Origin: Sneathiellales bacterium
GTDB taxonomy: Bacteria; Pseudomonadota; Alphaproteobacteria; JANQFL01
Direction of reading: 5' to 3'
DNA: 64,000 nt
Assembly: GCA_028277845.1 (NCBI GenBank)
Contig: JANQFL010000087.1
Span: forward strand, 13,704-77,703
Position numbers and translations under genes: made by a program. How positions within the stretch are numbered: the stretch's first letter is position 1; each line of letters begins with the position of its first letter. The notes under the pieces were generated by a model that was not told the DNA's origin, made no database searches, and worked only from the letters and a program-made list of their open reading frames with translations. Below, one piece after another: positions 2,343 through 24,063 of the stretch.

Positions 2343-3478
2343 CAGGCGGCCATCCTCGGACAGCGGTTCTGGATGGTGGCCACCAGGTCTTCGATCGAGC
2401 GGTTCATGCGCGCCAACGGAAAGGCCTGCACCGCGGTCTCCCGCGCCGCGGCGCCGATCTGGCGGCGCATCTCGGAATCGGCGCGCAGGCGGCGGATGGC
2501 ATCGGCCAGATCCGCCCGGTTGCCGGGTTCCACCAGCAGACAGTTCTCGCCGGACCGGAACACGTCGGGGTCCCACAAACCCTTGATGCGCGACAGCACC
2601 ACCGGCTTGCCACACGCCATGGCCTGCAGGGTGACGCTGTAGCCTGTCGGTTGCCAAACGTCCTTCAATGGCACCGCGACAATGGCCGCGCGGCGGTACA
2701 TGTCGCGTAGGACCTCATCGGTGACCTGCGAACCATGGTAGCTGCCGCGGATCAATTCGATCTCGGCGCGGCCGCCGGTGTCGACCGCCAGCCGGGTCAG
2801 AACTTTGATCGCGCCGTCATACCCGCAGGCGAACAGGGACGCATAGTCCCGGCTCGGGTCCGAACCGACCGACAGAACATATTCCTCGGCCAAGCCGTCG
2901 TCCGAGGGCGTCCAGAAATCGGTGTCGATGCCGAACAGAAACAGGCTGGTCTTGCTCTCATCCAGGCCGAAACGGCGCACCGATTCCTGCCGGTCCGCCT
3001 CGCCGAAGAAGAACAGATGATCGAGGCCGGCAAGCGCGTCGCGGACCTTGGTGTTTATGGCCCAACTGACCGGCGGCTTGACCGTCGTACCGATATCCGC
3101 AAGTCCGTGAAATCCGCCGGCGATCACCGACGAAATACCCGCCCGCTTGCCGTACAGGCCGAGGGACAAGCTGAACCAGTCGGTAAAGGTCAGGGCCATC
3201 GCGGCGCTGGAAACTTCGTTGCGCAAGGCGTTCACCCGTTGGCGACTGAATCCCGAGTTGCTCCAGCGGTTGCGCAGAATTTCCCATTGCAGCAGGCCGT
3301 TGTTGACCAGTCCGGGAGGGTCCTGACGCGTGTCGGCCATGGCGACGCGGCCGCCGATGTCGCGCAGATGCAGAAAGCCGTAAAAGAAATCCTTGGGTAC
3401 GGTGCCCGATGCCAACTCGCCCAGCCGCTGCTGGCGGCTGTTGCTGGGGAACAGGAACAGAATTGGGTTGTCGGACAC
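2342..3478 (-). CDS. glycosyltransferase family 4 (GT1-fold)
   Basis: 378 aa ORF with GT4-like C-terminal half (GENCLLVEPGNRADLADAIRRL). Confidence 0.7.
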   Translation of the reverse strand: MSDNPILFLFPSNSRQQRLGELASGTVPKDFFYGFLHLRDIGGRVAMADTRQDPPGLVNNGLLQWEILRNRWSNSGFSRQRVNALRNEVSSAAMALTFTDWFSLSLGLYGKRAGISSVIAGGFHGLADIGTTVKPPVSWAINTKVRDALAGLDHLFFFGEADRQESVRRFGLDESKTSLFLFGIDTDFWTPSDDGLAEEYVLSVGSDPSRDYASLFACGYDGAIKVLTRLAVDTGGRAEIELIRGSYHGSQVTDEVLRDMYRRAAIVAVPLKDVWQPTGYSVTLQAMACGKPVVLSRIKGLWDPDVFRSGENCLLVEPGNRADLADAIRRLRADSEMRRQIGAAARETAVQAFPLARMNRSIEDLVATIQNRCPRMAA

Positions 3479-3492: not shown

Positions 3493-4464
3493 TCAGAACG
3501 TTTGCCGGTACCAGCCGATCATCTTGTCCAGTCCCTGCTCCAGCGAGACCCGAAACGCGAAGTCGGGCACGATGGCGCGGAACCGGCTCATATCGGCGCT
3601 CTTGACGAACCGGCCTTCCGGTCTGGACGTATCGGTCTGCAGCACCGGGTCCAGGCCGCCGAGCCGGCAGATCAGAGCGACCAGATCGGTCATGCAGATG
3701 GTTTCCTCGGTGCCGATATTGATTGCGCCATTGCTGTGCCCGGACGCCACCAGCAACGCCATCATTTGGGCGCAGTCGCTGGCGTGGACGTAACTGCGGC
3801 GCTGTTTGCCGCTGCCCCAGATGACCACCGGATCGGCACCGTCCATCACCCGCTTCACCAGCATGGGGATGGCCTGGCTGAATTCGCCCATCCAGTTGTA
3901 GCGCTCGCCGTAGATGTTGAATGGCCGTACGATCGTCATCGGAATGCCGGACTCGCGGCCGGCGATCAGCGCCTTTTGCTCAAGAAATCGCTTGGCCCAC
4001 CCATAGCCCCAGTTGACCGCCTCGGGGTCGCCTTCGAACAGCGGTAGTTCGGGTACCGTGTCGGGACCGTCATCGGCGTAGACGCAGGACGACGAGGTAA
4101 TGAGAACGTGCTCGGGTTTGTGGACGCAGACGGCATCGAGTACGGCATTGGTGATGCGTTCGTTGTGCTGCAGGATGTCGTAGTGCCGGCCGGCCGCGTA
4201 ACCGACGCCGTAGGCCCGGCTGGCCAAATGAAACACCATTTGGGCATCGGCCAGGGCATCGTGCGCGAATTCGGCGATTTCAAGATTGCCTTCGCGGATA
4301 ATCACCTGGTCCGCAATCTGTTTCAGATTCTCGCGCCGGCCTTTGGAAAAATCGTCGACTACGATCACTTTTGCGCCCGCACCTACCAGCTCGTCGCAGA
4401 GATACGAACCGATCAGTCCGGCGCCGCCGGTCACGGCGACGGTCTTGTCGCGGACATTGGCCAC
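3493..4464 (-). CDS. NAD-dependent sugar epimerase/dehydratase (extended SDR)
   Basis: N-terminal Rossmann motif VTGGAGLIGSYL and catalytic YxxxK (YGWAK). Confidence 0.8.
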   Translation of the reverse strand: MANVRDKTVAVTGGAGLIGSYLCDELVGAGAKVIVVDDFSKGRRENLKQIADQVIIREGNLEIAEFAHDALADAQMVFHLASRAYGVGYAAGRHYDILQHNERITNAVLDAVCVHKPEHVLITSSSCVYADDGPDTVPELPLFEGDPEAVNWGYGWAKRFLEQKALIAGRESGIPMTIVRPFNIYGERYNWMGEFSQAIPMLVKRVMDGADPVVIWGSGKQRRSYVHASDCAQMMALLVASGHSNGAINIGTEETICMTDLVALICRLGGLDPVLQTDTSRPEGRFVKSADMSRFRAIVPDFAFRVSLEQGLDKMIGWYRQTF

Positions 4465-4474: not shown

Positions 4475-5350
4475 CTAGTCGTCCAGTTCATAGCCGACGG
4501 CACGGATCTCGGCCGCGAGTTCTTGTTCGATCAGCCGGCGTTGGTGCGCGTTTAAAGTCTGTTTCCAGCGATACAGCGGCGATTCACTCACCGTGGTCAT
4601 ATTGTCGTAAGACGAATTGGCGGCGATAGGTTTCCCCAACCGAGACGGTTGCAGAACGCAGGGATCGAAATCGATGCCGATGAAGTCGCACAGGCTGCGC
4701 ATGGTCTTTTCGGTATCTTGTACCAAATCCTCGTAACGCAGGCCGTAGGCGTTCGGCTCGGGAGAGATCCAGAACCGGTTGGCCACATTGCGCCACAGGC
4801 CGCAGAAATCAACGAGTTCATTGTCATCGAACGGCCGGTTGCGGGTCTTTTCGCGCAGTTTGGTGTGGCTGGCAAACGTGGCGCGCGGATCGCGGATCGA
4901 CACCACATACTTGGCCGGGCCGAAGATCTTCTCGACATAGGGAGTCGGCCGCTTGCAGATATTGGCGATATGATTGACCGTCACACCGCGCCGGGGATGG
5001 CCGCAGAACGACGGGAAATAGATCTCCTGAAATAAATCATAGAACTCTTGCAAATTGCGTACCGGTCCAACCCGGCGGCCCACTTTCTCGGTCAACTGTC
5101 CATATGCGCCTTCGCCGTGGATCATTGTAATCATGTCCTCGAGGCGCTGGTGAAAACCGGCCTCGCGCAGTTTTAGGCTTCGCGGCAGATAACGGTAGAG
5201 AGCGAAATAGGGCTGCTTGATTTCGTTTTTGTTGCAGGTATTCCAGTATTCGAACGGGAAGACGTTGCATGCGGGATGACCGTCCAGCAGATTGTTGGTC
5301 AACGTGCCGCCGGAGCGGGACATGGACACGATGGAGACGTTGGTGTTCAC
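4475..5350 (-). CDS. sulfotransferase (PAPS-dependent type)
   Basis: N-terminal 5'-PSB-like motif SMSRSGGT and 3'-PB-like SIRDPRA; 291 aa. Confidence 0.7.
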   Translation of the reverse strand: MNTNVSIVSMSRSGGTLTNNLLDGHPACNVFPFEYWNTCNKNEIKQPYFALYRYLPRSLKLREAGFHQRLEDMITMIHGEGAYGQLTEKVGRRVGPVRNLQEFYDLFQEIYFPSFCGHPRRGVTVNHIANICKRPTPYVEKIFGPAKYVVSIRDPRATFASHTKLREKTRNRPFDDNELVDFCGLWRNVANRFWISPEPNAYGLRYEDLVQDTEKTMRSLCDFIGIDFDPCVLQPSRLGKPIAANSSYDNMTTVSESPLYRWKQTLNAHQRRLIEQELAAEIRAVGYELDD

Positions 5351-5402: not shown

Positions 5403-6776
5403 TCAGGCCGCCTGTTCGGCGACGGTGTCGTCGATCACGTCGACCAGACTCTCACCGTATTCCTTGCCGGTGTCGGCGACGAAATAGCGCGATTCGTCGC
5501 GCAGGCGGTCGGCGACGCACGGGTCGCCGATTTGCGCGATGAGCTCTCCGAACCGCGCCGGGAAATCGTCCTGAGCATCGCATTTAAGGATGCTGGTCTT
5601 GGCGATGAAGTCGTTGAAGTGCACCAGACCGAGATTGTGGTCGTTCGATTGGTTGGAGAGCGGATAGAACATCATCGCCGGCTTGCCGTTGAGCACCGAT
5701 TCAAGCAATACCGTGGAGAGTGGCGACACCACCGCCGAGGCGAGACGCAACAGCCGGTTCATGACATTGTAGTCGGCCAGATACATCGAAGACTTACCGT
5801 CGACGATGCGCTGGCGGTAAAAATCGGCCATGGATGGGTCCATGCTGATATGTTTCCACGGCACGGCAAAGAAGTCTTGTTCCTCGATTCCCAGGCCACG
5901 CCGCCACGGATGCGGTCGGTAAACGACATGAACGTCGGGCGCCTCGCCGCTCTCGATCATGTCGTCCATCATCTTCAGGTAGACGGTTTCGTAGTTGCCC
6001 GAACCGTTGCCGGCATAGAGCACAATACGTTTGCCGTCCGGCACGCCGAACTCGTCGCGCAGGGCCCGCTCGGAGGTATCGGTGGGGCGCCGGTAGACCT
6101 GGAACTGGGCGGCGCCAATCGCGCGCACCCGGTCACCGGCTATCCCCATATACTCGGTCGCCAGGTTCTTGCTGTGCTCGCCCCACACCACCAGGCGGTC
6201 GGGATAGCCCGACGACATGGCCTTGGCCGACGGATTGTCCCACGAGTTCATCAGGGCGATGAACGGGATCTTCCGCCGCTGGCAGATCTGCAGCAGGTCG
6301 TTCATGAAATAACCGCCGAGGACCGACGGATGAACGATGACATCCGGTTGGTGCCGGGCGATGAATTCGTCGAGGGGTTGGTGTGTGCCCATATAGCGGG
6401 TATAGGCGAAGCGGAAAAATGGAAAGACGAAAGGCAAGGCCAGGATGTCGAGGATACGGGTGCGTTTCTCGCCGATGGCGTTGACGACGTAGTTGCGCCG
6501 CGGCTCGTAGTTTCGCTTACCCCTCTGCAGGCGGAGCGCGTTGATCGTCACCAGCCACCACCACATGCCCATGCGCTTGCGCGGTACTTCGACGGTTTCC
6601 ATCTGGGCCAGGCCGAGGGTTGCCGGATCGGTATAGACGCCTTTTTTCTCCGACGTGGTGTCGCTGTGAAACACGTAGGTGACGTCGTAGCGCCGTTCCA
6701 ACGCCTGGAACGCGCCGCTGTGCACGAAATTGCGCACGACGGCATCCATGTCGATGAAGACGAGAGCCTTTTTCAC
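5403..6776 (-). CDS. hypothetical protein, capsule-synthesis/TagF-like fold with RPHP motif; possible (nonulosonic) sugar or glycerophosphate transferase
   Basis: 457 aa ORF with protein-like composition; VVYRPHP motif recalls the KPHP motif of KpsC/KpsS/TagF-type transferases. Family assignment is tentative. Confidence 0.45.
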   Translation of the reverse strand: MKKALVFIDMDAVVRNFVHSGAFQALERRYDVTYVFHSDTTSEKKGVYTDPATLGLAQMETVEVPRKRMGMWWWLVTINALRLQRGKRNYEPRRNYVVNAIGEKRTRILDILALPFVFPFFRFAYTRYMGTHQPLDEFIARHQPDVIVHPSVLGGYFMNDLLQICQRRKIPFIALMNSWDNPSAKAMSSGYPDRLVVWGEHSKNLATEYMGIAGDRVRAIGAAQFQVYRRPTDTSERALRDEFGVPDGKRIVLYAGNGSGNYETVYLKMMDDMIESGEAPDVHVVYRPHPWRRGLGIEEQDFFAVPWKHISMDPSMADFYRQRIVDGKSSMYLADYNVMNRLLRLASAVVSPLSTVLLESVLNGKPAMMFYPLSNQSNDHNLGLVHFNDFIAKTSILKCDAQDDFPARFGELIAQIGDPCVADRLRDESRYFVADTGKEYGESLVDVIDDTVAEQAA

Positions 6777-6820: not shown

Positions 6821-8950
6821 CTAGACGAATTCGTTGAGGCCGGTCAGGCCGCGGTCGCCGCTGTGCAGGTCCTGGCCGTCGGGCGGCGGCACCAGGTGGC
6901 GGGCCTCGCCGGCATATTCGGGAATGCGGTAGAGGCGGCGAACGTAGATCTTCGACAGGATACGGCCGATGCCGATGACCGAATCGCCGTAGATTTCGAG
7001 AAAGTCGCGGGCGGTTTTCTTCTGTTCGTCGGTCAGATCGAATGAGATATCCGCCGGTTCGGCGAAGCGATAGTCGGCCACGTCGCGCGGCTGCAGGTCA
7101 TCGCTGAAGCGGATGACATCGAATTTGAATGCGCCGCTGGTCGAGGCGTCCAGATTATCGAACAAATGGCTCGCCCGCAGCCTGCCGAACTCGATCAGCT
7201 CGCGGCCCAATTCGATCGCCGCGGCGTCGACGCCCTTGTCGGTGAAATAATCGGTCAGCGTCTTGGTCGCGACCTCGGCCACCTCGTCGACCAAACGGAT
7301 CAGGCCGAGGGTCTTGTATTTGAAGATCAGGTTGGCGCCCAATTCGCCGTCGATATAGCGTTTGACCGTGTCGCGCTGGCGCACGAAGTCTTCCAGATCC
7401 TCGCGTTCGCCCCAAAGCTCCGCCTTGGTTTCGGCGAGGAAATCGGCGATCAGTTGATCGAAGCGGTCATTGCCGCGGAACGCCCAGATCCTTTCGATCC
7501 ATTCGTATTTCGAAAGGCTGAGCAGCTTGATCAGCCGCAGCACCTCCTTGTAGACGGCGTCGTTGTAAAACAGGTTGACGACCAGGTGCATGTGGCGGGC
7601 GCTGAGATATTCGTCGAAAGTGATGGCGTCGTTGCCGACGCAGATTTCCTCTACCTCAGCGGCGTTGATTGCCTCGCCGAGTACGTCGAAATAGCCGTAG
7701 CAGCGCGGCAGGACGCGATACCGATTGACCATCTTCCACTTGTCGACGCTTTCGCGCGTCGCCAGGTCGGTACCCGGCAGCAGCATCAGTTGAAACAGCG
7801 CCACGGTGTTGAAGTCGGCCTCGACGATGGTCCGTATGGTTTTCAGGTGCGCCTGCAGGCTGTCTCCCGGCAGACCGAGGATGATCTCGGAATAGCTGTT
7901 GGCGCCGATTTCGCTCGCCGCCAGGGCCAGGTCGAGAATTTCCTGCTCGTCGATGTTGTTGCGTTCGATGTTTTCCAGAACGTCCTTGTCGAGGCTCTGC
8001 ACCGATCCTGAAATGCGCAGCGAACCGCTGATGATGTTGGCGGCCTCAAGCACCCGGTGTTTTTGGTTCTTGCCGGTGGCGACGTTGATGTATTCGGGAA
8101 AACCGTACGTCTTCTGCACTTCGGCGATGGCGCGGCAGGTGTCGAGATCCTCCTTGTACATGCCGAAATTGGAGTCGGCGATGAACATGTCGGAGCGGGC
8201 CCGGCCGTTGCGGCGCAGTTCGGCCATGCGTGCGCCGATCAGGTTCATCTCGTCGCGCACCCGGTCGGTCTTGCCCTTGGCAACCTTGGAATAGTACTTG
8301 GTGCCCTCGACACAGAAGGTGCAGCGGAATGGACAGCCCCGGTTGGTCTGGATGATCGGCAGCATGACACCGTCGAAAAACTCGTCCATCAGCCCCTGAA
8401 GATAGGGTGACGGGATATCGGACAGATCGAGGCGCGGGGTGGTTTCCTGCGGTCCGTCGAAGCCGCCGTCCGCCATCAGGCGATGCACCGACGGCAAGCC
8501 GTGCGGTACGCCGCCCGGATCGAAGGCGCACGCCTCCAGCCGCTCGACGAGGTCGGCGAAGGCCGCCTCGCCCTCCTTGACGATGAAGAAATCGAACATG
8601 GGGTGGGCGCGGACGAATTCTTCCTGCTCGGCCGGATTTGTCGGATAGTTGGGGCCGCCGAACACGGTCACCACGCCAGGCAGCCTGCGCTTGATGACTG
8701 CCGCGAACTGGCTGCTCAGGTCCCGGTTCCAGATATAGTTGGAAAACCCGATCACCGCCGGTGCCGGTTCGTTGTCCAGGGCCGTGGCCAGCTTTTCCGG
8801 AAATTTGAACAGCCGGAATTGCGGCGGGTTAGGCCGCCTGCTGGCGGTATAACTGGCGATGCAGCCGATCGCCGCCGGCATGACGTCGGACGCAACGGTC
8901 TGCTGTGTATAGGTCAGGTCACATAGCCAGATCGACGGGGCTTCGGTCAA
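6821..8950 (-). CDS. B12-binding domain radical SAM protein
   Basis: CxxxCxxC motif NRGCPFRCTFC at 8312..8335. Start set at in-frame TTG 8950 preceded by GGAG 8 nt upstream; the ORF-track ATG at 9061 would overlap sqdB by 79 nt. A GTG at 9010 is an alternative. Confidence 0.7.
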   Translation of the reverse strand: MTEAPSIWLCDLTYTQQTVASDVMPAAIGCIASYTASRRPNPPQFRLFKFPEKLATALDNEPAPAVIGFSNYIWNRDLSSQFAAVIKRRLPGVVTVFGGPNYPTNPAEQEEFVRAHPMFDFFIVKEGEAAFADLVERLEACAFDPGGVPHGLPSVHRLMADGGFDGPQETTPRLDLSDIPSPYLQGLMDEFFDGVMLPIIQTNRGCPFRCTFCVEGTKYYSKVAKGKTDRVRDEMNLIGARMAELRRNGRARSDMFIADSNFGMYKEDLDTCRAIAEVQKTYGFPEYINVATGKNQKHRVLEAANIISGSLRISGSVQSLDKDVLENIERNNIDEQEILDLALAASEIGANSYSEIILGLPGDSLQAHLKTIRTIVEADFNTVALFQLMLLPGTDLATRESVDKWKMVNRYRVLPRCYGYFDVLGEAINAAEVEEICVGNDAITFDEYLSARHMHLVVNLFYNDAVYKEVLRLIKLLSLSKYEWIERIWAFRGNDRFDQLIADFLAETKAELWGEREDLEDFVRQRDTVKRYIDGELGANLIFKYKTLGLIRLVDEVAEVATKTLTDYFTDKGVDAAAIELGRELIEFGRLRASHLFDNLDASTSGAFKFDVIRFSDDLQPRDVADYRFAEPADISFDLTDEQKKTARDFLEIYGDSVIGIGRILSKIYVRRLYRIPEYAGEARHLVPPPDGQDLHSGDRGLTGLNEFV

Positions 8951-8982
8951 GTCATCTGCTCCACGCTGCAAGGCCGATCGGT

Positions 8983-10149
8983 CTATCGATCCGCTTTCTC
9001 GGACGACCACTGGATCCGTGGGTTCATCACGTTCCGGTCCACGAAGTCTACATGCCGGCATACCGTTTGGTACATGGCGTCCAACACGGCTTCCGTTAGA
9101 AGGTTAGGGCGCAATCCGAGATCGACAAGTTTCGAGTGCTTTGCGTTGTAGTAATGATCCTCCAATTCCACCCGGGGATTCTCCAGGTGGTCGATCTGTG
9201 TATCCTGCCCGTTGCGCTTCGCGGCAGCGACCACCATTTCGGCCAGTTGCAGGACCGAGAACTGTTCGGTGAACTGGTTGAAGACACGGAAATCGCCGCG
9301 ATCGGCCGGATTGTCGACCGCCAGGGCGACGCACTGGATGGTGTCCTTGATATTGAGGAAACCGCGCGTCTGGCCACCCTTGCCGTAAACCGTCAGGGGG
9401 CATCCGATCGCCGCCTGGACCAGAAATCGGTTCAGAACCGTGCCGAACACATCGTCGTAATGGAACGACGTCTCCAGGTCGGGGTGCAGCACGGTCTGAT
9501 CCGTCTCGATACCGTAAACGACTCCCTGGTTGAGGTCGGTCGCCCGCATGTCCCAAATCCGGCAGGTGAATTCGATATTGGCCGAATCGTGCACCTTGGA
9601 CAGGTGGTAAAAACTGCCGGGACGCTTGGGGAACAGGACCCGGTCCTTGCGGCCGTTGTGTTCCAGCTCCAGCCAGCCTTCCTCGATATCGATGTTCGGC
9701 GTGCCGTACTCGCCCATGGTGCCCAGCTTCACCAAATGTGCGTCCGGGCAATGAGCCCGCATGGCGAACAGGACGTTCATCGTGCCTTCGATATTGTTTG
9801 TCTGGGTGTAGACCGCGGTCGTTCTGTCCTGCATCGAATAGGGGGCGGAGGGCTGCTCGCCGTAGTGCACGATGGCGTCGGGCTTGAATTCCCGGATCAC
9901 CTTGTAGACGAAGCGATGGTTACACAGATCCCCGACCATCAGCGCGATGTCGTTACCGCTGATTTCCTTCCAGCGCCGGACGCGCCGGTGCAACGGTGGA
10001 ATGGCCGCCAGCGGCTCGATGCCTTCCTCCAACTCCCATTGCCGTTTGGCGAAATTGTCGACGATGGCAACCTCGTCGCCGCGGGCGGAGAAATGCATGG
10101 CCGTCGGCCAGCCCAGATAACCATCACCACCAAGAACCAATACACGCAT
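8983..10149 (-). CDS. sqdB: UDP-sulfoquinovose synthase (SqdB/SQD1 family)
   Basis: Long blocks match SQD1 as I recall it: GGDGYLGWPTAMH, VKLGTMGEYGTPNIDIEEG, FYHLSKVHDS, RATDLNQGVVYG, LTVYGKGGQTRGFL, FRVFNQFTEQFSV, HYYNAKH. Confidence 0.85.
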   Translation of the reverse strand: MRVLVLGGDGYLGWPTAMHFSARGDEVAIVDNFAKRQWELEEGIEPLAAIPPLHRRVRRWKEISGNDIALMVGDLCNHRFVYKVIREFKPDAIVHYGEQPSAPYSMQDRTTAVYTQTNNIEGTMNVLFAMRAHCPDAHLVKLGTMGEYGTPNIDIEEGWLELEHNGRKDRVLFPKRPGSFYHLSKVHDSANIEFTCRIWDMRATDLNQGVVYGIETDQTVLHPDLETSFHYDDVFGTVLNRFLVQAAIGCPLTVYGKGGQTRGFLNIKDTIQCVALAVDNPADRGDFRVFNQFTEQFSVLQLAEMVVAAAKRNGQDTQIDHLENPRVELEDHYYNAKHSKLVDLGLRPNLLTEAVLDAMYQTVCRHVDFVDRNVMNPRIQWSSEKADR

Positions 10150-10197
10150 GACCTGTCTCTGCTTTTCGTGAAGTTGTTGAGTCTGAAAGCGCCGGAT

Positions 10198-10932
10198 CTA
10201 AAGTCGGGATCCGTCACTCATGTGAGGGAGTTCGATGGCGCCGCTCGACAGCAGCGCCTCCGCAATCGGGAGGTCTTCGGGACCGTCTAGGTCGAGGCCA
10301 TAGCGCGAGTCAATGCCAATTCCCGCGCAGGGCTCCGCATAAAACCCCGATCCATCGCGCAAGGCGTCCGTCCGCGCCGCGATCAGATTGCCGAACACCA
10401 TCAGTTTCGGCTTGTTCTGTTTCAGCCGTGCGCTGCCGCGTTCCTCGGCAAACAGAAAGCCGACCCGGCCGTCGGCATCCAGCTGCCTCTGGTTCCAGGC
10501 GTGGCTGTTGTGTGCCACGGCGATGACGTTGTGGGCCGATCGTGCCGCGCCGTCGCGTTCGAACACGCCCAGCAGTTCCTCGACATGGACGGGCAGAAGA
10601 AACGGCGATGTCGGTTGAATCAGCACGATGACGTCGGGCAGCGTTTCGCCCTGGCCGGCCGCGCGTTCGAGATATTCCCGCACTACGTCGTCGACCTTGA
10701 CCGCGTCGCCGCCCAGGTCGTCGGGCCGCCGATCCACGTCCACCCCGAGCGCTATTGCCCGTTGGGCGATGCGGTCGCTGTCCGTCGAGCAGACGATGCG
10801 GTCGAGGCGCCCGGAGGCGATCGCCGCCGTGATGCCGTAATCGAGCAGCGGCCGGCCGGCGACGGACACCAGGTTTTTCAACGGAATGCTTTTCGATCCG
10901 CCCCGCGCCGGGACGAAACCCCAGGCGTTCAT
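10198..10932 (-). CDS. acylneuraminate cytidylyltransferase family (CMP-nonulosonate synthetase, NeuA/LegF/PseF-like)
   Basis: N-terminal PARGGSKSIPLKN motif typical of CMP-NeuAc/CMP-Kdo-type cytidylyltransferases; start overlaps upstream stop (ATGA). Confidence 0.75.
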   Translation of the reverse strand: MNAWGFVPARGGSKSIPLKNLVSVAGRPLLDYGITAAIASGRLDRIVCSTDSDRIAQRAIALGVDVDRRPDDLGGDAVKVDDVVREYLERAAGQGETLPDVIVLIQPTSPFLLPVHVEELLGVFERDGAARSAHNVIAVAHNSHAWNQRQLDADGRVGFLFAEERGSARLKQNKPKLMVFGNLIAARTDALRDGSGFYAEPCAGIGIDSRYGLDLDGPEDLPIAEALLSSGAIELPHMSDGSRL

Positions 10933-11888
10933 CGGCCGGACTCCCTCGCCAGTGCGCGCAACGCCTTGTCGATGACGAAGGCTTCGGTCTCGCTCCAGGC
11001 GTCGTGGGTCGAACCGCCGATATGCGGCGTCAGGATCAGATTGTCGTGTTCCCGGGCATAGACGGCGACGCGGCTGTCACCGAACGACTGGGCAAAATCG
11101 GTGCGGTATTCGCCGTCGATGGTATCGAGGGCGGCGGCCTGGAGATGGCCCGATTCCAGCAGGTCGAGCAAGGCGTCCAGGTCCAGGAGTTCGCCGCGGG
11201 CCGTGTTGACCACCACGGCGCCCCGGGGCAGCGCCTCCAGCACGGCGCGCGAAACGAGGTTGCGGGTTCCGTCGTTGGCCGGTGCGTGCAGGGACAGGAC
11301 ATCGGAGCCGGCGGCCAGGGCTTCGATTGTGTCCACGCCGCCGTCGACGTAGGGATCGTAGTAGGCCGTCTTCATACCGATGGCTTCGGCGATGCGGGCG
11401 ACCTTGCGGCCCAGCCGGCCATAGCCGACAAGGCCCAGGCGCATACGGGACAACATGCGCGGCGCACCCCACGGCCGCCGGTTCCAGGCACCACTGGCCG
11501 CCGCCGCGTGAGCCGCCGGAATCCGCCGCCAGGCCGCCATCATCAGGCCGATGGCGTGTTCCGCCGTCGGTGTGATGCCGTCGAGAAACTCGGGCTCGTC
11601 GTGCAGGGCGCACACCGCGATATGTCTGCTCGCGGCGGCCTGGGCATCGATATGGGGAATGCCCGTGGTGTTGGACACGACCGCGCGCAGGCGTGGGCAG
11701 CGATCCATCTTGTCCGCGTCCACGGCAAATCCCAGGGGCGCGAACAGCACTTCGGTTTCGGCCAACATGTCCGCCGTGTCGTCGCGCGGGTCATCCAACG
11801 CCGTCAGGTCGAAACAGTCCCGAAGCCGGGCCAGGTTCTCGGGCTGGTAGCTCATGATGCGGTAATAGAGGGCGCGGGGACGGGGCAT
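10929..11888 (-). CDS. D-isomer-specific 2-hydroxyacid dehydrogenase family
   Basis: NAD-binding GLVGYGRLGRKVA and C-terminal catalytic region (LILTPHIGGST). Start set at Met 58 of the ORF (11888) to avoid overlap with the upstream gene; Met 69 (11855) is an alternative. Confidence 0.7.
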   Translation of the reverse strand: MPRPRALYYRIMSYQPENLARLRDCFDLTALDDPRDDTADMLAETEVLFAPLGFAVDADKMDRCPRLRAVVSNTTGIPHIDAQAAASRHIAVCALHDEPEFLDGITPTAEHAIGLMMAAWRRIPAAHAAAASGAWNRRPWGAPRMLSRMRLGLVGYGRLGRKVARIAEAIGMKTAYYDPYVDGGVDTIEALAAGSDVLSLHAPANDGTRNLVSRAVLEALPRGAVVVNTARGELLDLDALLDLLESGHLQAAALDTIDGEYRTDFAQSFGDSRVAVYAREHDNLILTPHIGGSTHDAWSETEAFVIDKALRALARESGR

Positions 11889-11895
11889 CGCGGAG

Positions 11896-13050
11896 TCAGT
11901 AGGCCAGGGTCTTGTCGACCGGTGGCAAAGGCGCGGCAAGGCATGCGGCAATCTGTTCGCCCGCGCGGCCGTCGCCGTAAACCGTATCGGAGGGATAGAC
12001 GCCGTGCGCGATCTGGCGCCGGGTTGCGGCGACGATCTCGTCGGTGTCGTGGCCGACATTGACGACGTTGCCGCCCTGCTGGCGGCCGCGCTGGCGGTTG
12101 CCGATATTGACCACCGGGACTCCGAGGAACGCGCTTTCGCGAATGCCGCTCGACGTGTTGCCGACCAGGCATACCGCGTTCTTGATCAACGCCGCATAAC
12201 GTACGAAGTTCAGCCCCGAAATCGTCCGCACCGGCGGGGCATCGCCGTTCGATTGCAGGGCACTTAAAGGGCCGGCCACCGATTGGGCGCCGGCGTCGTC
12301 GTTGGGCAGCACCCAGATAGTGGGAATGTTCAACTCCACCACGGCATCGGCGGTGTGCGTGAACTGGCGCCGGGCATCGTCGTATTCCGTCACGACGGGA
12401 TGCTGCGACACCACCAGGTATTCCGCCGTCAGATCGACCGCGGCGCCGTTGCCGTTGTCGGTCAAACACCGGTCCAAATCATCACCGGCGGCCAAGTCGA
12501 GACCGGCGAGCTGATCCAGACTCGGCGTGCCGACGACGTGCACGGTGTCGGCAATCTCGCCCAGGCGGATCAGCCGGTCGGCCGCGTCCCTGTTGGCCGG
12601 AAAATGAATGTGGGCCAATTTGGTGATGGCGTGCCGGATGCGTTCGTCGATGGAACCCGAAACCTCGCCGCCCTCCAGATGGGCGATGACGGTATTGCGG
12701 CACATCGCCGCCTGGGCGATCGACAGGCATTCGTACCGGTCGGCGATGACCATCACCACGTCGGGATCGAGCTCGGTCAGAATTCGGCCGAATGCGATCG
12801 TGCAACGGCCGGCCGACTCGACGACCGAGTCGAGCGTCTGCCCAGCGGCGATATAGTCCAGGGTGCGGTCGATGGTGAAACCATCCCATTCGATAACTTC
12901 GACAAAGGAGTCGTAGTCTTGCCCGAGCAGGATACCGCCCACGACCAACTGCAGGGACAAATCGGGGTGGCGCTGAATGGCCGCCATGGTCGATTTCATC
13001 TTGCCGTAATTGCCCCGCGTGGTCAGGACGATGCAGATGCGGCGACTCAC
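11896..13050 (-). CDS. UDP-N-acetylglucosamine 2-epimerase (hydrolysing), NeuC/LegG-like
   Basis: 384 aa; motifs IADRYECLSIAQAA and HLEGGEVSGSIDE typical of the UDP-GlcNAc 2-epimerase family. Confidence 0.75.
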   Translation of the reverse strand: MSRRICIVLTTRGNYGKMKSTMAAIQRHPDLSLQLVVGGILLGQDYDSFVEVIEWDGFTIDRTLDYIAAGQTLDSVVESAGRCTIAFGRILTELDPDVVMVIADRYECLSIAQAAMCRNTVIAHLEGGEVSGSIDERIRHAITKLAHIHFPANRDAADRLIRLGEIADTVHVVGTPSLDQLAGLDLAAGDDLDRCLTDNGNGAAVDLTAEYLVVSQHPVVTEYDDARRQFTHTADAVVELNIPTIWVLPNDDAGAQSVAGPLSALQSNGDAPPVRTISGLNFVRYAALIKNAVCLVGNTSSGIRESAFLGVPVVNIGNRQRGRQQGGNVVNVGHDTDEIVAATRRQIAHGVYPSDTVYGDGRAGEQIAACLAAPLPPVDKTLAY

Positions 13051-14081
13051 GGTTCGAGAACCTCCCAGGTCAGCGGCGCGTCTGCGGCGACCGGTTGCTT
13101 GAGGCGCTTGCCGATCACATCGGCCAGATCACCGGGCGAGATCCCGGTGCCGGGCCGTTTGGCGGCGACATCGGTTTCGGCGATCACGTGACCGGCCGGC
13201 AGATCGTTGCGGGCAACCAGGGATTTCAGCGCCCATTCCATGCCCGGCCGCTCGCTGGCCGCCGGTTCCTTGCGGCCATGCCCGAGCATGGTCTCGACCC
13301 GTCGGATATCGGCCACCAATTGCGGCAGATCCTCGGGGCCGGCCGAGACCTTCCAGTCCTGGGCATTGGGCACGTCGCGCAGAATGGTGATGTGCTTCTC
13401 GATGATCTGGGCGCCGCGGGCGACCGCCGCAAGCACGGCCAAACCGTCTTCCGTGTGATCGGAATAACCGACCGGGCCGGGGAACGCCGTGCGTATATGG
13501 TCCATCGCACTCAGATTGACATCGGCCGGCGGTGCCGGATAGCTGGTGACACAATGCAGCAGGGCGATATCGGCGCATCCGGCGTACAGGCAGGCGTTCG
13601 TCGCTTCGGCGATATCGTCCAGGCCGTACATGCCGGTCGAGATGATCATCGGTTTGCCAAGCGCCGCCAGACGGGCCAGGAAGGCTGGATTGCCGCGCTC
13701 GCCCGAGCCGACCTTGACCGCCGGCACATCCAGGGTTTCGAGCCACGGGATACGGGTCTCGTCATGGGCGGTCGCCATGAACAACAGCCCGCGGGCTTCG
13801 CAGCGTTCTTTCAGTTCGACCGCCTGATCCAAGGTCAGGTTGCGCGGCCGCAACCGGTCCTGCCAGTCGGCGGCCCGGTTGGAGATCAGTGCCTCGACGT
13901 CGAAAAACTGGGTCTTGAAGACATCCGCGTTGGCATCGGCCGCCAGGTCCACCAGGTCACGGGCCAAGCCCATGTCGCCGAAATGGGCGACGCCGGCTTC
14001 GGCGATGAACAGGCAGGGTGCGTCACCGCCGACCCGGCGATCGCCGATGCGGAACGAAGACACCGGCTGAAGGCTGTTCAT
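13047..14081 (-). CDS. N-acetylneuraminate synthase family (NeuB/LegI/PseI-like nonulosonic acid synthase)
   Basis: Start at internal Met (MNSLQPV) giving ATGA overlap with the upstream ABC gene stop; NeuB-like TIM-barrel region plus C-terminal SAF-like domain. Confidence 0.8.
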   Translation of the reverse strand: MNSLQPVSSFRIGDRRVGGDAPCLFIAEAGVAHFGDMGLARDLVDLAADANADVFKTQFFDVEALISNRAADWQDRLRPRNLTLDQAVELKERCEARGLLFMATAHDETRIPWLETLDVPAVKVGSGERGNPAFLARLAALGKPMIISTGMYGLDDIAEATNACLYAGCADIALLHCVTSYPAPPADVNLSAMDHIRTAFPGPVGYSDHTEDGLAVLAAVARGAQIIEKHITILRDVPNAQDWKVSAGPEDLPQLVADIRRVETMLGHGRKEPAASERPGMEWALKSLVARNDLPAGHVIAETDVAAKRPGTGISPGDLADVIGKRLKQPVAADAPLTWEVLEP

Positions 14082-15925
14082 GAGGACCCGCCCTGGCCCG
14101 TGGCGGCCACCGGGGGCTGCTGCGCGAGGGCATGAAACAGCTCGGTCGACCGGTACAGCGACTGATAGGTGCCCTGTGCCGCCAGGCGGCCGTCTTCGAG
14201 GACGAAAATGGTATCGCACTCGGCGATGGTGGAAATGCGGTGGGCGACGGTGATGGTGGTCACTTCGCCTTTCAGTTTGGCCACCGTATCCTGGATCAGT
14301 TTTTCGGTGCCGGTGTCGAGCGAACTTGTCGCCTCGTCCAGCACAAGGATATCGGGCGCGTCATACAGCGCCCGGGCAATGGTGACGCGCTGGCGCTGAC
14401 CGCCGGAAAGCCGCAGGCCGCGGTCTCCCATCACCGTGTCGAGGCCGTCATCCAACTCGGCGACCACGTCGGTCAAGCCGGCCTTGTCGAGGGCGCGGCG
14501 TACCTTGTCGTTGTCGATGTCGGCGTCGGGCACGCCAAAGGCGACATTGCGCCGCAGTGTATCGTTGGCGATGAACGGCGACTGAGGCACATAGCCAATT
14601 CGGCCGAACCAGTTCGATCGGGCGAAGTCGGTGATGTCCGTGTCATCCAAACGCACGTGACCGTCGGTCGGCGGCAAAACACCGAGCAGGATGTCGACGA
14701 ACGTCGACTTGCCCGCGCCCGATGGGCCGACCACGCCGACCGATTGACCGCGGGCTATCGCCAGGGAAATGCGATCGAGCGCGGTGGCGGTCGTGCCCGG
14801 GTAGGAAAAACTGACGGCATCGAAGTGGATGGCCGACCACTCGTCCGGTACCTTGGCGCCACCACTGGGCTTCCCCCATTCCGTTTCCGCCGCCGCCAGT
14901 TCGGCGCGCAAGTCGGCGAGTCCCCTGGTATAGGCCCTGACCTTGGCCAGTTTCGTGATGGTACCGACAACACGGGACAGGGCAGGGATAAGACGGGCGC
15001 TGATCAATCCCAGCAAAGCGACCTGCGAGGCGATTTCGCCGGTGCTGGCACCGGCACCGAACAGGGACACCGCGACGATGATCAGTCCGAGCTGGCCGGT
15101 CAACAGCAGCCCCATCGGCACGGCCCGTTGCAGCAGTTGCGCCTTCATACGGCTTGTGGCGGCCCTGTGATAGAGACGTGTGTACATGCTGGTGAAGAAC
15201 CCTTGACGGGCCTTGACCTGGATATCCTTGATGCCGTTGACCGCCTCGACGCCAAGCTGGCTGCAATGCAGCCATTGGGTCCGTTCGTCGGCGGCGTAGC
15301 GGGCGATGCGTGGGCGAATGACCGCCATCATCATGACGGCGGCGAAGGCGATAATCGCGGCGACGGCAACGATCGCCTGCCACGGCAAGGCAACCGCCAC
15401 CACCGCAAAGGCAAAGACAAGCAGCAGCGAGGTGTACACCAGCTCCATGACCGTCGGATACAGCGACACCGCCGTGTTGGTCGGATCTTTGTAGAGCCGA
15501 TGGGACAGCATCGCCGCATTCTGGCGCAGGAACCAGACATAGGGTGCCTTGAGGCAGCGATTGAGCAGGTCGTTGGCCAGATAACGCCCGATACGGACAC
15601 TGAGGATTTCGGTCATGAACAGCGAGAAATAGCTGCCGATAACGCCCAGAACCAGCAGGCTCGCGGCGATAAGGCCGAGCATCTGGATCAACTCCCGTTC
15701 CGTGTCGGTCGCCAGGATATCGGCGATCTTTTGCAGCCATTCGCTGCGCTGAAGCATGGTCGGTTCGACCACCAGCGTCACGAAAGGCGCCGCCGAGGAT
15801 AGGGCGACCATTTCCAGGGCGCTGGTGAACACGAACAGCAGCAGGATCGCAGCCGCGGCAGTCTTCTGCCGGGCCGTCAGGAACGACCAGCCGATGGCGA
15901 CGATATTGGTTGACGGTTTCGTCAT
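14078..15925 (-). CDS. ABC transporter, fused permease/ATP-binding exporter
   Basis: N-terminal hydrophobic helices; Walker A GPSGAGKST, signature LSGGQRQR, Walker B ILVLDEATS. Start at Met 21 (MTKPSTNIV) avoids overlap with the upstream gene. Confidence 0.85.
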   Translation of the reverse strand: MTKPSTNIVAIGWSFLTARQKTAAAAILLLFVFTSALEMVALSSAAPFVTLVVEPTMLQRSEWLQKIADILATDTERELIQMLGLIAASLLVLGVIGSYFSLFMTEILSVRIGRYLANDLLNRCLKAPYVWFLRQNAAMLSHRLYKDPTNTAVSLYPTVMELVYTSLLLVFAFAVVAVALPWQAIVAVAAIIAFAAVMMMAVIRPRIARYAADERTQWLHCSQLGVEAVNGIKDIQVKARQGFFTSMYTRLYHRAATSRMKAQLLQRAVPMGLLLTGQLGLIIVAVSLFGAGASTGEIASQVALLGLISARLIPALSRVVGTITKLAKVRAYTRGLADLRAELAAAETEWGKPSGGAKVPDEWSAIHFDAVSFSYPGTTATALDRISLAIARGQSVGVVGPSGAGKSTFVDILLGVLPPTDGHVRLDDTDITDFARSNWFGRIGYVPQSPFIANDTLRRNVAFGVPDADIDNDKVRRALDKAGLTDVVAELDDGLDTVMGDRGLRLSGGQRQRVTIARALYDAPDILVLDEATSSLDTGTEKLIQDTVAKLKGEVTTITVAHRISTIAECDTIFVLEDGRLAAQGTYQSLYRSTELFHALAQQPPVAATGQGGSS

Positions 15926-15950
15926 GGATTCAGTTTGGAGTTCGCCCGCC

Positions 15951-17654
15951 TCAATAATCGGCGATGAACTTGTAGCTGTCCGCACGGTCCATCTTGTAGG
16001 AATGGTAGTGCATCCGGTCGGAATGGAACCAGCCGTGCAGCAGATCGGTTTCCTGTTGCAGCGGGGCGGGATTGTCGCTCACGACCTTCCGGTAATCCTC
16101 ATACAGGGCGAAGATCGCCGAATCGTCGCCGGTGACGAAACTGTCCTGCCAATCGGGATGGCAGAAGAACCAACCGGCAAAGACCTTGGCGCTCTCCCGT
16201 GTCTTGGCCAGATCCAGGTCGTTCCACCAGGGCCGTTTGAGGCAATCGATGTATTCTTCGCGGGATCGGCACCAGGTGCCGACGCCGCAATCGTGGAACC
16301 AACCGCGGTCCGCCATCAACGACGGCTTGCCGAGATACGCGTATTCGATGGCGGCGGTGCCGGTACAGGTGATGACGGCGTCGACGCAGTCCATCACCGC
16401 CCGGCCGTTCCAGCCCTGGGGCGCTATCTGGACATGGCCGGCCATGCGCTCGCCGATATAGTCGGCCAACGACGCGCCGCCGTACCACAGATCGCAGGGG
16501 TGGGGCTTGAACAGCCAGTAGACGTCGGTGTTTTGCTTGGCGATATCGACCGTCAGGGAAATCCAGTCGAGATAGTCTGTGAAGTTGTTGAGCCCGAACA
16601 CGTGCGGATAGTCGAACCAGTTGGAGGCATAGACGCCGACGATGGGCTTGTCCTCGGTCCAGCCGAAGCGCTGGCGCAATTGCTCCCGGTCGATGTGGTC
16701 GTTGGCGTTGATGTAGGCATACAAGGTGCCCAGATCCAACGTCTTGCCGTTGAGGCGGTTGTCCAGGTACGAGCCGCCGACCTCGGACAGGGACCCCAGC
16801 TGTTGCGGGCTCAGGTTTCGGGCGTGTTCGACCGGCAGGCGGTCGACCCAATCGAAGATGGCTTCGCGCGAGCGGATCTTCCAGTATCGCGGCACGCCGT
16901 AGCAACCGTACAGCACCACCGCCGGAATACCGAGCGATAGGGCGACATAAGCCAGCGCGCCATAACGGAACTCGATGACATGGCTGAGGATCAGCAGGGA
17001 CGTGCGTTCGGCCGACAATATGCGTTCGGCGGCGTCGATGCTCAGCAAGGCTTCGGCGACGTGGTCCTCCAGTTTCGGGTCCGCCATGTCGATGGTGCCG
17101 AGGCGGCGACGCTTGAGAATGCCGTCATAGACCCAGCCGCCGGGAAAGCCGTGCGGCAGGTCCCATTCCATCATGTCTTCCGGACGATCGGTCATATCCA
17201 GAAGCTGTCGTGCCCGGCGGCGGGCGTCCTTGAGGCCGGAACGGAAGTGTTTTTCAAACCGCACCGTGTCATTGATGCCGAGACGGTTCATGGTCTCCTT
17301 GGCCTCGCGGGTGCGCCACTTGCCGACGATGCCGACCTCGTTGGCGGTCGGCAGCCCGAGGGCCTTGCGCAACAAGGTCAGGCGCCACCAGTAGTTCGGA
17401 TTGAACCACATGCCGTCGATCAGCACCCGGTCCGGGAACGTCTTGTCCGTCGACTCGGCGATCTGCCGGAACAGATTCTCCGCCGGAATTCGCTGGCGTT
17501 GAATCTCCTGCCAGCGCGCCCGTTCGGACGGTGTGATTCGGCGGCGCAGCATTTGGCCCTGGGCGTAAAGGTGCTTCGCCGCGGTTAACATGCGCGAAGA
17601 GGCCTTCGACAAGGGCGACGGACGGGTATTTGATTCTGAGGTGGAAACGGTCAT
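15951..17654 (-). CDS. capsule-polysaccharide-biosynthesis-like protein (KpsC/KpsS/LpsZ-like fold with KPHP motif); candidate glycosyltransferase
   Basis: 567 aa with WLFKPHP motif. Family assignment tentative; start could also be Met 22 (17591). Confidence 0.45.
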   Translation of the reverse strand: MTVSTSESNTRPSPLSKASSRMLTAAKHLYAQGQMLRRRITPSERARWQEIQRQRIPAENLFRQIAESTDKTFPDRVLIDGMWFNPNYWWRLTLLRKALGLPTANEVGIVGKWRTREAKETMNRLGINDTVRFEKHFRSGLKDARRRARQLLDMTDRPEDMMEWDLPHGFPGGWVYDGILKRRRLGTIDMADPKLEDHVAEALLSIDAAERILSAERTSLLILSHVIEFRYGALAYVALSLGIPAVVLYGCYGVPRYWKIRSREAIFDWVDRLPVEHARNLSPQQLGSLSEVGGSYLDNRLNGKTLDLGTLYAYINANDHIDREQLRQRFGWTEDKPIVGVYASNWFDYPHVFGLNNFTDYLDWISLTVDIAKQNTDVYWLFKPHPCDLWYGGASLADYIGERMAGHVQIAPQGWNGRAVMDCVDAVITCTGTAAIEYAYLGKPSLMADRGWFHDCGVGTWCRSREEYIDCLKRPWWNDLDLAKTRESAKVFAGWFFCHPDWQDSFVTGDDSAIFALYEDYRKVVSDNPAPLQQETDLLHGWFHSDRMHYHSYKMDRADSYKFIADY

Positions 17655-17687
17655 AGCTGCGTTAAGTATCGGCGCCGGTCGGGGCGG

Positions 17688-18617: not shown

Positions 18618-18657
18618 GACGTCGAACGGCAGGGCGTTATCCGATCGGCTAGGCAGG

Positions 18658-19365: not shown

Positions 19366-19369
19366 GGCG

Positions 19370-23517: not shown

Positions 23518-24051
23518 ATGCAGCCGATCATTCATGCCTACAAAGGCATCTCGCCCATCATCGCCGACGATGCCTTCATCGCTCCCGGCGCCGCCGTCAT
23601 CGGCAACACGCACATCGGCAGCAAGTCGAGCATCTGGTATGCCTGCGTCGTCCGCGGTGATGAAAACAAGATCCGCATCGGCGACAACACCAACATCCAG
23701 GACGGCACGGTCGTGCACATCACCAGCAAGACCCACGGCACGTTCATCGGCAACAACGTGACCGTCGGCCACAGCGCGCTGATCCACGGCTGTACGTTGG
23801 AAGACGGCGCCTTCGTCGGCATGAAGGCGACGGTCATGGACGGCTGCGTGGTGGAAACCGGCGGCATGCTGGCGGCAGGATCGCTGCTCACGCCTGGCAA
23901 GGCCGTCAAGGCGGGTCAGCTATGGTCGGGATCACCGGCTCGCTACACCCGGGACCTGACGGACGAGGAACAGGCCTATTTCAGCGCCGCCGCCGGCCAT
24001 TATGTCGAAATGGCTCAGCAGTTCCGCCGCGACTTGGGCTGGACAGAGTAG
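23518..24051 (+). CDS. gamma-class carbonic anhydrase / hexapeptide-repeat family protein
   Basis: Left-handed beta-helix hexapeptide repeats (IGDNTNIQDGTVVH..., IGNNVTVGHSALIHGC...). Confidence 0.8.
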   Translation: MQPIIHAYKGISPIIADDAFIAPGAAVIGNTHIGSKSSIWYACVVRGDENKIRIGDNTNIQDGTVVHITSKTHGTFIGNNVTVGHSALIHGCTLEDGAFVGMKATVMDGCVVETGGMLAAGSLLTPGKAVKAGQLWSGSPARYTRDLTDEEQAYFSAAAGHYVEMAQQFRRDLGWTE

Positions 24052-24063
24052 GGCCGCGCGGCG

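Follow-up and report, generated by a model that had tools for sequence, protein, structure and literature searches.

To our knowledge, sulfoquinovose has been regarded almost wholly as the head group of photosynthetic sulfolipid, with a few archaeal N-glycans as the exceptions. The pathways to legionaminic and pseudaminic acid run from LegB, PseB or Pen through LegG/PseG and LegI/PseI to LegF/PseF. We analysed a 64,000-nucleotide stretch of contig JANQFL010000087.1 from a Sneathiellales bacterium (the window), in which a homologue of the UDP-sulfoquinovose (UDP-SQ) synthase SQD1/SqdB is encoded at positions 8983-10149, among genes for nonulosonic acid (NulO) synthesis. The subfamily to which this protein belongs, which we call K-type, sits in NulO gene sets across at least five bacterial lineages, and not with sulfolipid genes. 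We propose, with a probability of about 45%, that the enzyme converts UDP-glucose to UDP-sulfoquinovose, and that this sugar and a NulO become part of a single anionic glycoconjugate, which an ABC transporter exports to the surface.

The window protein resembles SQD1 of Arabidopsis and SqdB of cyanobacteria and Rhodobacter along its full length (57% identity to SQD1) and in its NAD motif, catalytic triad, H183, TMG wall and Q209 motif. It differs from them in belonging to a separate clade marked by K36, E40, P47, S229 and H231, and in having Pro at Arg101; moreover, K-type genes are never found beside the classical neighbours (GT2, GT21, GT-C and SqdX-like GT4 glycosyltransferases). The nearest functional precedent is Agl3 of Sulfolobus acidocaldarius, a UDP-SQ synthase that supplies an archaeal N-glycan (PMC4388408). 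Agl3 is likewise an SQD1-family enzyme, and the sulfosugar that it provides goes into a surface glycan and not into a lipid, which is the role we propose for the window enzyme. Agl3 is archaeal and ~40% identical to SQD1, and its product is a separate residue of a dolichol-linked N-glycan (PMC4388408). However, a link to NulOs has not been described for Agl3, and an Arg essential to Agl3 is absent from the window SqdB. The nearest organisational precedent is found in legionaminic and pseudaminic acid operons, where a short-chain dehydrogenase/reductase (SDR) that modifies C4-C6 of a UDP/GDP-N-acetylhexosamine is encoded with a NeuC-like hydrolase/epimerase, a NeuB-like synthase and a cytidylyltransferase (PMC8987622). 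Unlike those operons, the window has an SDR predicted to be of the SQD1 type, adding sulfite, rather than a 4,6- or 5,6-dehydratase, and the conserved K-type core has no aminotransferase or acetyltransferase. Full-text literature searches returned no paper tying sqdB or sulfoquinovose to NulOs, lipopolysaccharide (LPS) or capsule, and no description of a sulfonated N-acetylhexosamine (sulfo-HexNAc) or a sulfonated NulO. In a recent preprint, the only sulfosugars named are sulfoquinovose, sulfofucose and transient sulforhamnose.

The window SqdB and the K-type subfamily

The open reading frame (ORF) encodes 388 amino acids from an ATG start on the minus strand; translation of the plus strand gives many stops. 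A phmmer search of all Protein Data Bank (PDB) sequences returned Arabidopsis SQD1 (1qrr/1i24) as the best match, at 512 bits (E ~1e-152), and the next matches were generic SDRs at no more than 43 bits. Residues 2-382 align with residues 3-383 of SQD1, with 56.7% identity over 381 columns. Judged from these alignments, the homology is far above chance, and the full-length match bears out the first-pass annotation of this DNA, which had called the gene an SQD1/SqdB ortholog. That annotation had also suggested checking the catalytic residues against Arabidopsis SQD1, and in the alignment T145, Y182 and K186, together with H183 and Q209, are intact. They lie in the kept motifs GTMGEYGT (T145, in the [ST]MG wall), SFYHLSKVHD (Y182, H183 and K186) and LNQGVVYG (Q209), and the NAD motif GGDGYLG is kept as well. 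Each position of GTMGEYGT and SFYHLSKVHD is at least 90% conserved in 91 aligned homologues, and the five residues are invariant in the 84 homologues that we tabulated. A fingerprint of the form [ST]MG...Yx3K has been given for UDP-SQ synthases (PMC8987622), and the motifs above agree with it.

To place the protein among its relatives, we used 80 SqdB-homologue loci from species-representative genomes, plus several from assemblies; each scan contributed its 80 best-scoring loci, and individual loci are numbered with the prefix L. The alignment splits the homologues cleanly into a classical R-type, with R36, R229 and D231 in 60/60 sequences (Arabidopsis SQD1 and one cyanobacterial sequence among them), and the K-type, with K36, E40, P47, S229 and H231 (SQD1 numbering) in every member (at least 67 sequences). 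This bipartition was recovered in 94 of 100 neighbour-joining bootstrap replicates, a fast distance method. The window SqdB carries all five K-type residues, plus N78 and R80, and by sequence it is a member of the K-type subfamily, distinct from classical SqdB. Pro in place of R101 was considered as a further subfamily marker and dropped, since it is frequent among classical homologues too (~16 of them have it, and Pro or Ala occurs in ~17 of 60 R-type sequences). We also dropped an argument against family membership based on the NCBIfam equivalog NF041015, for which the window SqdB scores 463.8 bits against a cutoff of 575, because SQD1 itself lies below that cutoff. Indeed, the cutoff shuts out both Arabidopsis SQD1 (484.7) and a cyanobacterial SqdB (489.9), and because it is too high for bona fide members, named database relatives are annotated merely as "NAD-dependent epimerase/dehydratase".

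The three catalytic motifs GTMGEYGT, SFYHLSKVHD and LNQGVVYG are identical between K-type and R-type sequences. Because the catalytic core is identical, we infer that the sulfite-adding chemistry has been retained, probably with an unchanged sugar pocket. Retention of this chemistry is also suggested by genes near some K-type SqdB genes: CysNC/CysD in L005 and L084, which also have KdsD and a WecA-like gene nearby, and a small gene of the PAPS-reductase family directly upstream of SqdB in L014. Alternatively, the enzyme could work independently of sulfite, as a 5,6- or 4,6-dehydratase of a UDP-hexose or UDP-HexNAc that provides the 6-deoxy precursor of a 9-deoxy NulO, the role of LegB, PseB or Pen. 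UDP-SQ synthases do yield the 5,6-ene without sulfite (PMC4388408; PMC8987622), the position in a NulO operon is like that of LegB or PseB, and no other dehydratase is consistent in the core cassette. Nonetheless, the TMG wall and H183 specific to SQ synthases are kept, rather than the TDE/TDK acid-base pairs of true dehydratases, and 57% identity to a plant sulfite-dependent enzyme points to strong constraint towards the same chemistry. Given also the sulfate-activation and PAPS-reductase-family genes beside SqdB in L014, L005 and L084, we consider a dehydratase quite unlikely.

K-type loci come from Alphaproteobacteria, Rhodocyclaceae, Gaiellaceae, Saccharibacteria, Parcubacteria and others, and all those with an organism named in the source record are metagenome-assembled genomes. 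Within the subfamily there is a branch with N78 and R80 (K-N78), which includes the window SqdB, and a small Chloroflexi branch that keeps D78 (K-D78). The four Chloroflexi loci (L016, L018, L020 and L023; ~10000-13700 in each) have a fixed trio of SqdB, a GalE-like SDR and a Wzx flippase, and none of the four has NulO genes. We regard this trio as a candidate pathway to UDP-sulfofucose, a 4-epimerised sulfosugar whose biosynthesis is not known (bioRxiv 10.1101/2023.08.01.551581).

Coupling of K-type SqdB to nonulosonic acid genes

The first sign of coupling came from tblastn searches with the proteins of the window locus, and was followed by counts with profile hidden Markov models (HMMs) in 82 loci retrieved with SqdB. 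Neighbouring genes were read by HMM and label-transfer searches on six-frame translations, some labels being transferred with BLAST from a small set of proteins that we had annotated ourselves. Among the 25 K-N78 loci, a NeuC-type Epimerase_2 gene is present in 23, NeuA in 20, NeuB in 19 and a 2-hydroxyacid dehydrogenase in 11; the two loci without NeuC are L050 (contig end) and L011. By contrast, profile HMMs found each of Epimerase_2, NeuB and NeuA in 0/59 R-type loci, and likewise in 0/4 K-D78 loci. For NeuC in the GTDB-only subset the counts are 15/17 versus 0/63 (Fisher p = 2e-14), an optimistic value that ignores kinship among loci; co-occurrence counts of this kind lack phylogenetic independence and are inflated by common ancestry of the cassettes. 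The usual gene order is NeuB-NeuC-(hydroxyacid dehydrogenase)-NeuA-SqdB, but NeuA-SqdB-NeuB and SqdB-unk457-NeuC (with 4-bp overlaps; unk457 is a 457-residue protein discussed below) also occur, and despite this variation SqdB stays within the biosynthetic block. One locus, L083, with an SqdB 73% identical to that of the window, has nearly the whole 20-gene window locus. In L005 and L084 the context is a different one, MBOAT-NeuC-SqdB-GmhA-like, in which the epimerase is NeuC-type (349 bits to TIGR03568). What these comparisons add to the first-pass annotation is that the placement of SqdB is not peculiar to one genome: it marks a K-type subfamily that lies near-obligately in NeuC/NeuB/NeuA cassettes across phyla.

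We considered the possibility that the window enzyme serves ordinary synthesis of sulfoquinovosyl diacylglycerol (SQDG), with the lipid glycosyltransferase (SqdX, SqdD or similar) encoded elsewhere and the position in a glycan locus incidental. The catalytic core is identical to that of the sulfolipid enzymes, and our view of the genome is limited to 64 kb. However, more than 60 K-type loci have a NulO context, versus 0/59 classical loci, SqdB shares operon-like 4-bp overlaps with NulO genes, and no sqdX-, sqdD- or sqdC-like sulfolipid glycosyltransferase gene was detectable within the window. We regard SQDG synthesis as very improbable, and concur with the first-pass annotation in placing this SqdB outside a sulfolipid operon, with NulO and glycan genes as its neighbours.

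Genes adjacent to R-type SqdB are instead those for GT2 with DUF2304, GT21, PMT_2-type GT-C, AsnB and SqdX-like GT4. The classical SqdB genes of Acidobacteria, Actinomycetes and Nitrospina lie beside GT2 with DUF2304, GT21, PMT_2-type GT-C and GT2-PMT fusions (examples are L082 11154-12227, L044 11237-12406, L068 12561-14423 and L026 6083-8344). These neighbours suggest that sulfoquinovose is passed via a polyprenyl-phosphate carrier to extracytoplasmic acceptors, besides its use in SQDG.

The coupling holds in the reciprocal direction. A metagenome scan with the window NeuB gave a best 80 loci with 44-72% identity, and among the 43 with informative flanks, 39 encode an SQD1 homologue. Thirty-four of these homologues are K-type and five belong to a third, divergent lineage (T-type); L165 has a K-type fragment below the counting threshold. 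Members of the third lineage (L152, L153, L161, L166 and L169) have the motifs YHTTK and LMQGPVYG together with R36, are 45-50% identical to SQD1, and are encoded directly upstream of NeuB, at ~8800 or, in the short contig L153, at 911. From its sequence, this lineage looks like a second recruitment of the SQD1 family into NulO cassettes. The remaining four loci, of which three are near-identical, lack SqdB, and their NeuB is of the same lineage (64-72% identical). These four loci indicate that the NulO enzymes are able to exist without SqdB. The rare SqdB-less NeuB-(hydroxyacid dehydrogenase)-NeuA cassettes of L117, L119 and L138 (~12800), and the shorter one of L099, have a gene of the UDP-glucose/GDP-mannose dehydrogenase family after NeuA. 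This family also makes C6 of a nucleotide sugar anionic, and in L097, L101, L114 and L011 such a gene is adjacent to SqdB.

So tight a coupling raises the possibility that the sulfonate is carried by the NulO itself. SqdB would then sulfonate UDP-N-acetylglucosamine (UDP-GlcNAc), NeuC would convert the product to 6-deoxy-6-sulfo-N-acetylmannosamine, NeuB would condense this with phosphoenolpyruvate to 9-deoxy-9-sulfo-N-acetylneuraminic acid or a derivative, and NeuA would form the CMP-sugar; in a variant of this route, unk457, with its NeuC-like fold, may process the UDP-sulfosugar. Such a route would parallel those to legionaminic and pseudaminic acid, in which the epimerase and the synthase follow an SDR that modifies C6. 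It would fit a SqdB that is embedded in the operon, including the 4-bp overlaps of SqdB-unk457-NeuC, and coupled near-obligately to NulO genes in both directions. It is also favoured by loci with two NeuB/NeuC/NeuA sets (L015, L019, L039 and L085), whose paralogues are merely 27-38% identical: the SqdB-proximal NeuB and NeuA copies group with one another across phyla and not with the distal copies, and the window NeuB falls in this SqdB-associated clade. In L019, NeuC-MT-NeuA-SqdB-NeuB is followed by NeuC-MT-NeuA-NeuB, so that the two cassettes differ by SqdB alone. In L005 and L084, NeuC and SqdB are adjacent and NeuB and NeuA are not nearby. The additional SQD1-like lineage, with its altered sugar-side motif LMQGPVYG, fills the same slot as K-type SqdB, the window NeuB retains the N-acetyl-binding R314, the fold of unk457 is closest to NeuC, and the UDP-GlcNAc 5,6-dehydratases TunA and Pen show UDP-GlcNAc to be a workable substrate for the first half of the chemistry (PMC8987622).

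Against sulfonation of UDP-GlcNAc, none of the recognised active-site motifs differs from those of UDP-glucose enzymes, with no evident enlargement of the pocket, and neither a sulfo-HexNAc nor a sulfonated NulO was found in the literature searched. Moreover, four loci have the same NeuB lineage without SqdB, common cassette ancestry inflates the co-occurrence counts, and NeuB has no universal signature for an anionic C9. A search for such a signature in the NeuB pocket was uninformative: an Arg after E134 is proteobacterial only, and D247 and R314 are unchanged. We therefore put forward only tentatively, as the chief alternative to our favoured reading, that SqdB supplies a sulfonated precursor to NeuC. 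The same tentativeness applies to the wider proposal that K-type and T-type SQD1 homologues of Proteobacteria, Actinomycetota and the candidate phyla radiation (CPR) make, via NeuC, NeuB and NeuA, a C-sulfonated sialic acid analogue that is borne on exported glycoconjugates.

Two further genes recur in these loci. The dehydrogenase resembling phosphoglycerate dehydrogenase (PGDH) lies between NeuC and NeuA, always inside the NulO cassette, and is also present in most of the loci found with NeuB; it co-varies with one NeuA subtype and has no obvious role in known NulO pathways. The B12-binding radical SAM enzyme is encoded in L006, L007, L083, L086, L088, L089, L098, L103, L111, L133 and more, and its recurrence hints that one of the sugars is C-methylated.

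The window locus and its candidate transferases

Between ~486 and 23500, all genes of the window run on the minus strand and form a glycan locus of ~23 kb (Table 1). In order of transcription they encode an SDR, a second cytidylyltransferase, two unknown proteins, the ABC exporter, NeuB, NeuC, the PGDH-like dehydrogenase, a NeuA-like protein, SqdB, the B12-binding radical SAM enzyme, unk457, a sulfotransferase, another SDR, a GT4, a GT4-like protein and a methyltransferase. SqdB thus has the radical SAM gene downstream and the putative CMP-nonulosonate synthetase gene upstream, the two flanking genes that the first-pass annotation had named. The annotated ATG of the radical SAM gene overlaps the SqdB stop by 79 nt; its start is likely a TTG near 8971, which would leave no overlap with SqdB. 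The protein is ~715-746 aa long. The true starts of the dehydrogenase and NeuB are probably near 11894 and 14078, respectively.

Table 1. Predicted genes of the glycan locus, in order of position in the window.
Feature	Position	Strand	Basis of assignment
SAM-dependent methyltransferase	486-1286	minus	Pfam Methyltransf_25, Methyltransf_11; 62% homologue in L001
Divergent GT4-like protein, ~340 aa	1317-2339	minus	weak Pfam Glycos_transf_1; 55% homologue in L001, also in L083
GT4 glycosyltransferase	2342-3478	minus	Pfam Glycos_transf_1
Extended SDR, NDP-sugar epimerase/reductase-like	3493-4464	minus	Pfam Epimerase; generic NCBIfam matches; 64% homologue in L003
Sulfotransferase	4475-5350	minus	Pfam Sulfotransfer_3, Sulfotransfer_1; equivalent position in L083
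GT-B-fold protein unk457	5403-6776	minus	predicted fold; coupled to K-type SqdB
B12-binding radical SAM enzyme (KedN5-like C-methyltransferase family)	6821-9061	minus	NCBIfam, Pfam
SQD1/SqdB-family UDP-sugar C6-sulfonating enzyme (predicted), K-type subfamily	8983-10149	minus	SQD1 homology, catalytic motifs
NeuA-like cytidylyltransferase, putative CMP-nonulosonate synthetase	10198-10932	minus	Pfam CTP_transf_3; groups with SqdB-proximal NeuA of other phyla
D-2-hydroxyacid dehydrogenase, PGDH-like	10929-12059	minus	NCBIfam PGDH, 2-hydroxyacid dehydrogenase; ~110 bits to SerA structures
NeuC-type hydrolysing UDP-GlcNAc 2-epimerase	11896-13050	minus	TIGR03568; human GNE epimerase domain
NeuB-type nonulosonate synthase	13047-14219	minus	TIGR03569 below cutoff; NeuB structures 167-169 bits
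Fused TMD-NBD ABC exporter (MsbA/PglK/HepA-like)	14078-15985	minus	NCBIfam matches
Conserved protein, 567 aa, upstream of ABC exporter	15951-17654	minus	no family match; homologues likewise placed in L003, L083 and others
Protein with weak sulfotransferase signal	17688-18854	minus	Pfam Sulfotransfer_1/_3, E ~1e-3; equals L083 unk334 by label transfer
Second cytidylyltransferase (KdsB/NTP_transf_3-like)	18658-19677	minus	Pfam, NCBIfam; equivalent position in L083
Extended SDR (4,6-dehydratase/epimerase-like), distal locus end	19370-20437	minus	Pfam, NCBIfam; equivalent position in L083

The window NeuC passes the TIGR03568 cutoff (347.5 versus 235.9 bits), and its closest structure is the epimerase domain of human GNE (217 bits). 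The window NeuB is below the TIGR03569 cutoff (297.7 versus 399.65 bits), and alignment to Neisseria meningitidis NeuB shows that it keeps the equivalents of the catalytic E25, E134 and E234 and of R314, residues whose roles have been described (PMC8208679). The NeuA-like protein is above the Pfam threshold for CTP_transf_3, its best NCBIfam equivalog being PseF at 92 bits against a cutoff of 206. The ABC exporter gene adjoins NeuB in most proteobacterial K-type loci. Two genes of the window locus are sulfotransferase-like, one clearly and one weakly, and L085 has at least three sulfotransferase genes. Since sulfotransferases and a sulfonate-forming enzyme are encoded in one locus, the glycan may bear both O-sulfate and C-sulfonate. 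The other ~40 kb of the window are housekeeping genes (PhaC, homoserine dehydrogenase, GlpX, RecJ, SufS, FadJ, Mrp and others). The ORF for a PhaC-type polyhydroxyalkanoate synthase (748 aa, 24064-26310, minus strand) lies directly past the glycan locus, and a 370-aa ORF (23981-25093) that overlaps it is probably a shadow ORF.

The first-pass annotation had suggested that a GT4 gene within 1317-3478 could encode the sulfoquinovosyl transferase. This region comprises two genes, the GT4-like gene and the GT4 gene, and both accompany SqdB in a subset of proteobacterial loci only. The GT4 has no specific similarity to a GT4 adjoining a classical R-type SqdB, and being neither a conserved partner nor specifically like an R-type-linked GT4, it is a weak candidate for the suggested role. 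Glycosyltransferase counting, as a means of excluding a separate sulfoquinovosyl transferase, was dropped because L115 contains a GT4.

The protein actually coupled to SqdB is unk457, not the GT4. It matches no Pfam family; its own family comprises ~1000 proteins annotated as "hypothetical". Of the top 120 family members, at least 25 share contigs with top SqdB matches, and for two members picked from contigs outside this set the neighbours were once more SqdB and NeuC. An AlphaFold2 model has a confident GT-B fold (pLDDT 93.8), with Foldseek matches to MshA, TagF and 2-epimerases at TM ~0.5. There is an invariant RPHPW and a weak NCBIfam match to the BFO_1060 family, which comprises NulO transferases of Tannerella that were validated by knock-out and have an HP motif (PMC5420450). 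Weak matches to the Tannerella forsythia transferases BFO_1060/Tanf_01245 (PMC5420450) occur in the SqdB-adjoining slot in the window (unk457) and in L085 (unk481), while in L087 and relatives the unk457 slot has a protein with a Capsule_synth domain, like the KpsC/KpsS transferases. Proteins of this slot share an HP motif and a GT-B fold like that of TagB/TagF. To judge from the model and these matches, unk457 would be either a nucleotide-sugar-processing enzyme or a transferase with a CMP/CDP-type donor, and it is not recognisably SqdX-like.

Proposed pathway and significance

Sulfoquinovose is a plausible glycan building block in this organism. In the pathway that we favour, SqdB would use tightly bound NAD+ to oxidise C4 of a UDP-hexose, eliminate water across C5-C6, add sulfite at C6 and reduce C4 again, giving a UDP-6-deoxy-6-sulfo-hexose. 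The substrate would still be UDP-glucose and the product UDP-sulfoquinovose. Sulfoquinovose and the NulO would be a functionally coupled pair, one perhaps being the acceptor of the other, and both would be part of the same lipid-linked, strongly anionic surface glycoconjugate, with unk457 handling one of them. We favour UDP-sulfoquinovose as the source of a separate residue because the pocket motifs are unchanged and no precedent for a sulfo-HexNAc turned up in the literature searched. As its end product, the locus would probably yield a lipid-linked, strongly anionic glycoconjugate that the MsbA/PglK-like transporter brings to the surface; we infer this from the conserved ABC gene, the sulfotransferases, the WecA-like gene of L084, a CDP-alcohol phosphatidyltransferase in L115 and adjacency to LptD/E in L088. 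In the latter locus (13261-17841), the cassette ABC exporter is directly followed by lptE and lptD, which hints at a link to the outer membrane or LPS.

Several observations weigh against joining of sulfoquinovose and a NulO as separate residues. At the five K-type positions, the fixed residues differ from those of every classical enzyme, and the Arg of EQRSAP (R101) is Pro in the window SqdB and all K-type sequences; in Agl3, Ala in place of this Arg gives an inactive enzyme (PMC4388408). A conventional sulfoquinovosyl transferase candidate conserved across K-type loci was not found, and unk457 resembles NeuC/2-epimerases or CMP/CDP-donor transferases rather than SqdX. Lastly, for an independent sugar module one would not expect a near-obligate two-way link to one NeuB/NeuA lineage across at least five phyla, nor the usual position of SqdB, which either lies between NeuA and NeuB or directly follows NeuA.

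Our analysis shows that use of SQD1-type enzymes is widespread, non-photosynthetic and taxonomically broad, and is tied to sialic acid-like sugars. The K-type loci point to an undescribed sulfonated surface glycan. Should the proposal hold, the signature K36/E40/P47/S229/H231, together with a gene-context rule, would separate these enzymes from sulfolipid SqdB in annotation, and the existence of a natural sulfonated NulO would become a sharp question; if the sulfonate is in fact carried by the NulO, a C-sulfonated sialic acid analogue would be a class of sugar not described so far. The pathway would also be a new source of C-sulfonated sugar in the organosulfur cycle. It would define a large family of bacterial surface glycans that are doubly anionic, with carboxylate and sulfonate and often sulfate, and that would be relevant for biofilm matrices, phage receptors and host mimicry.

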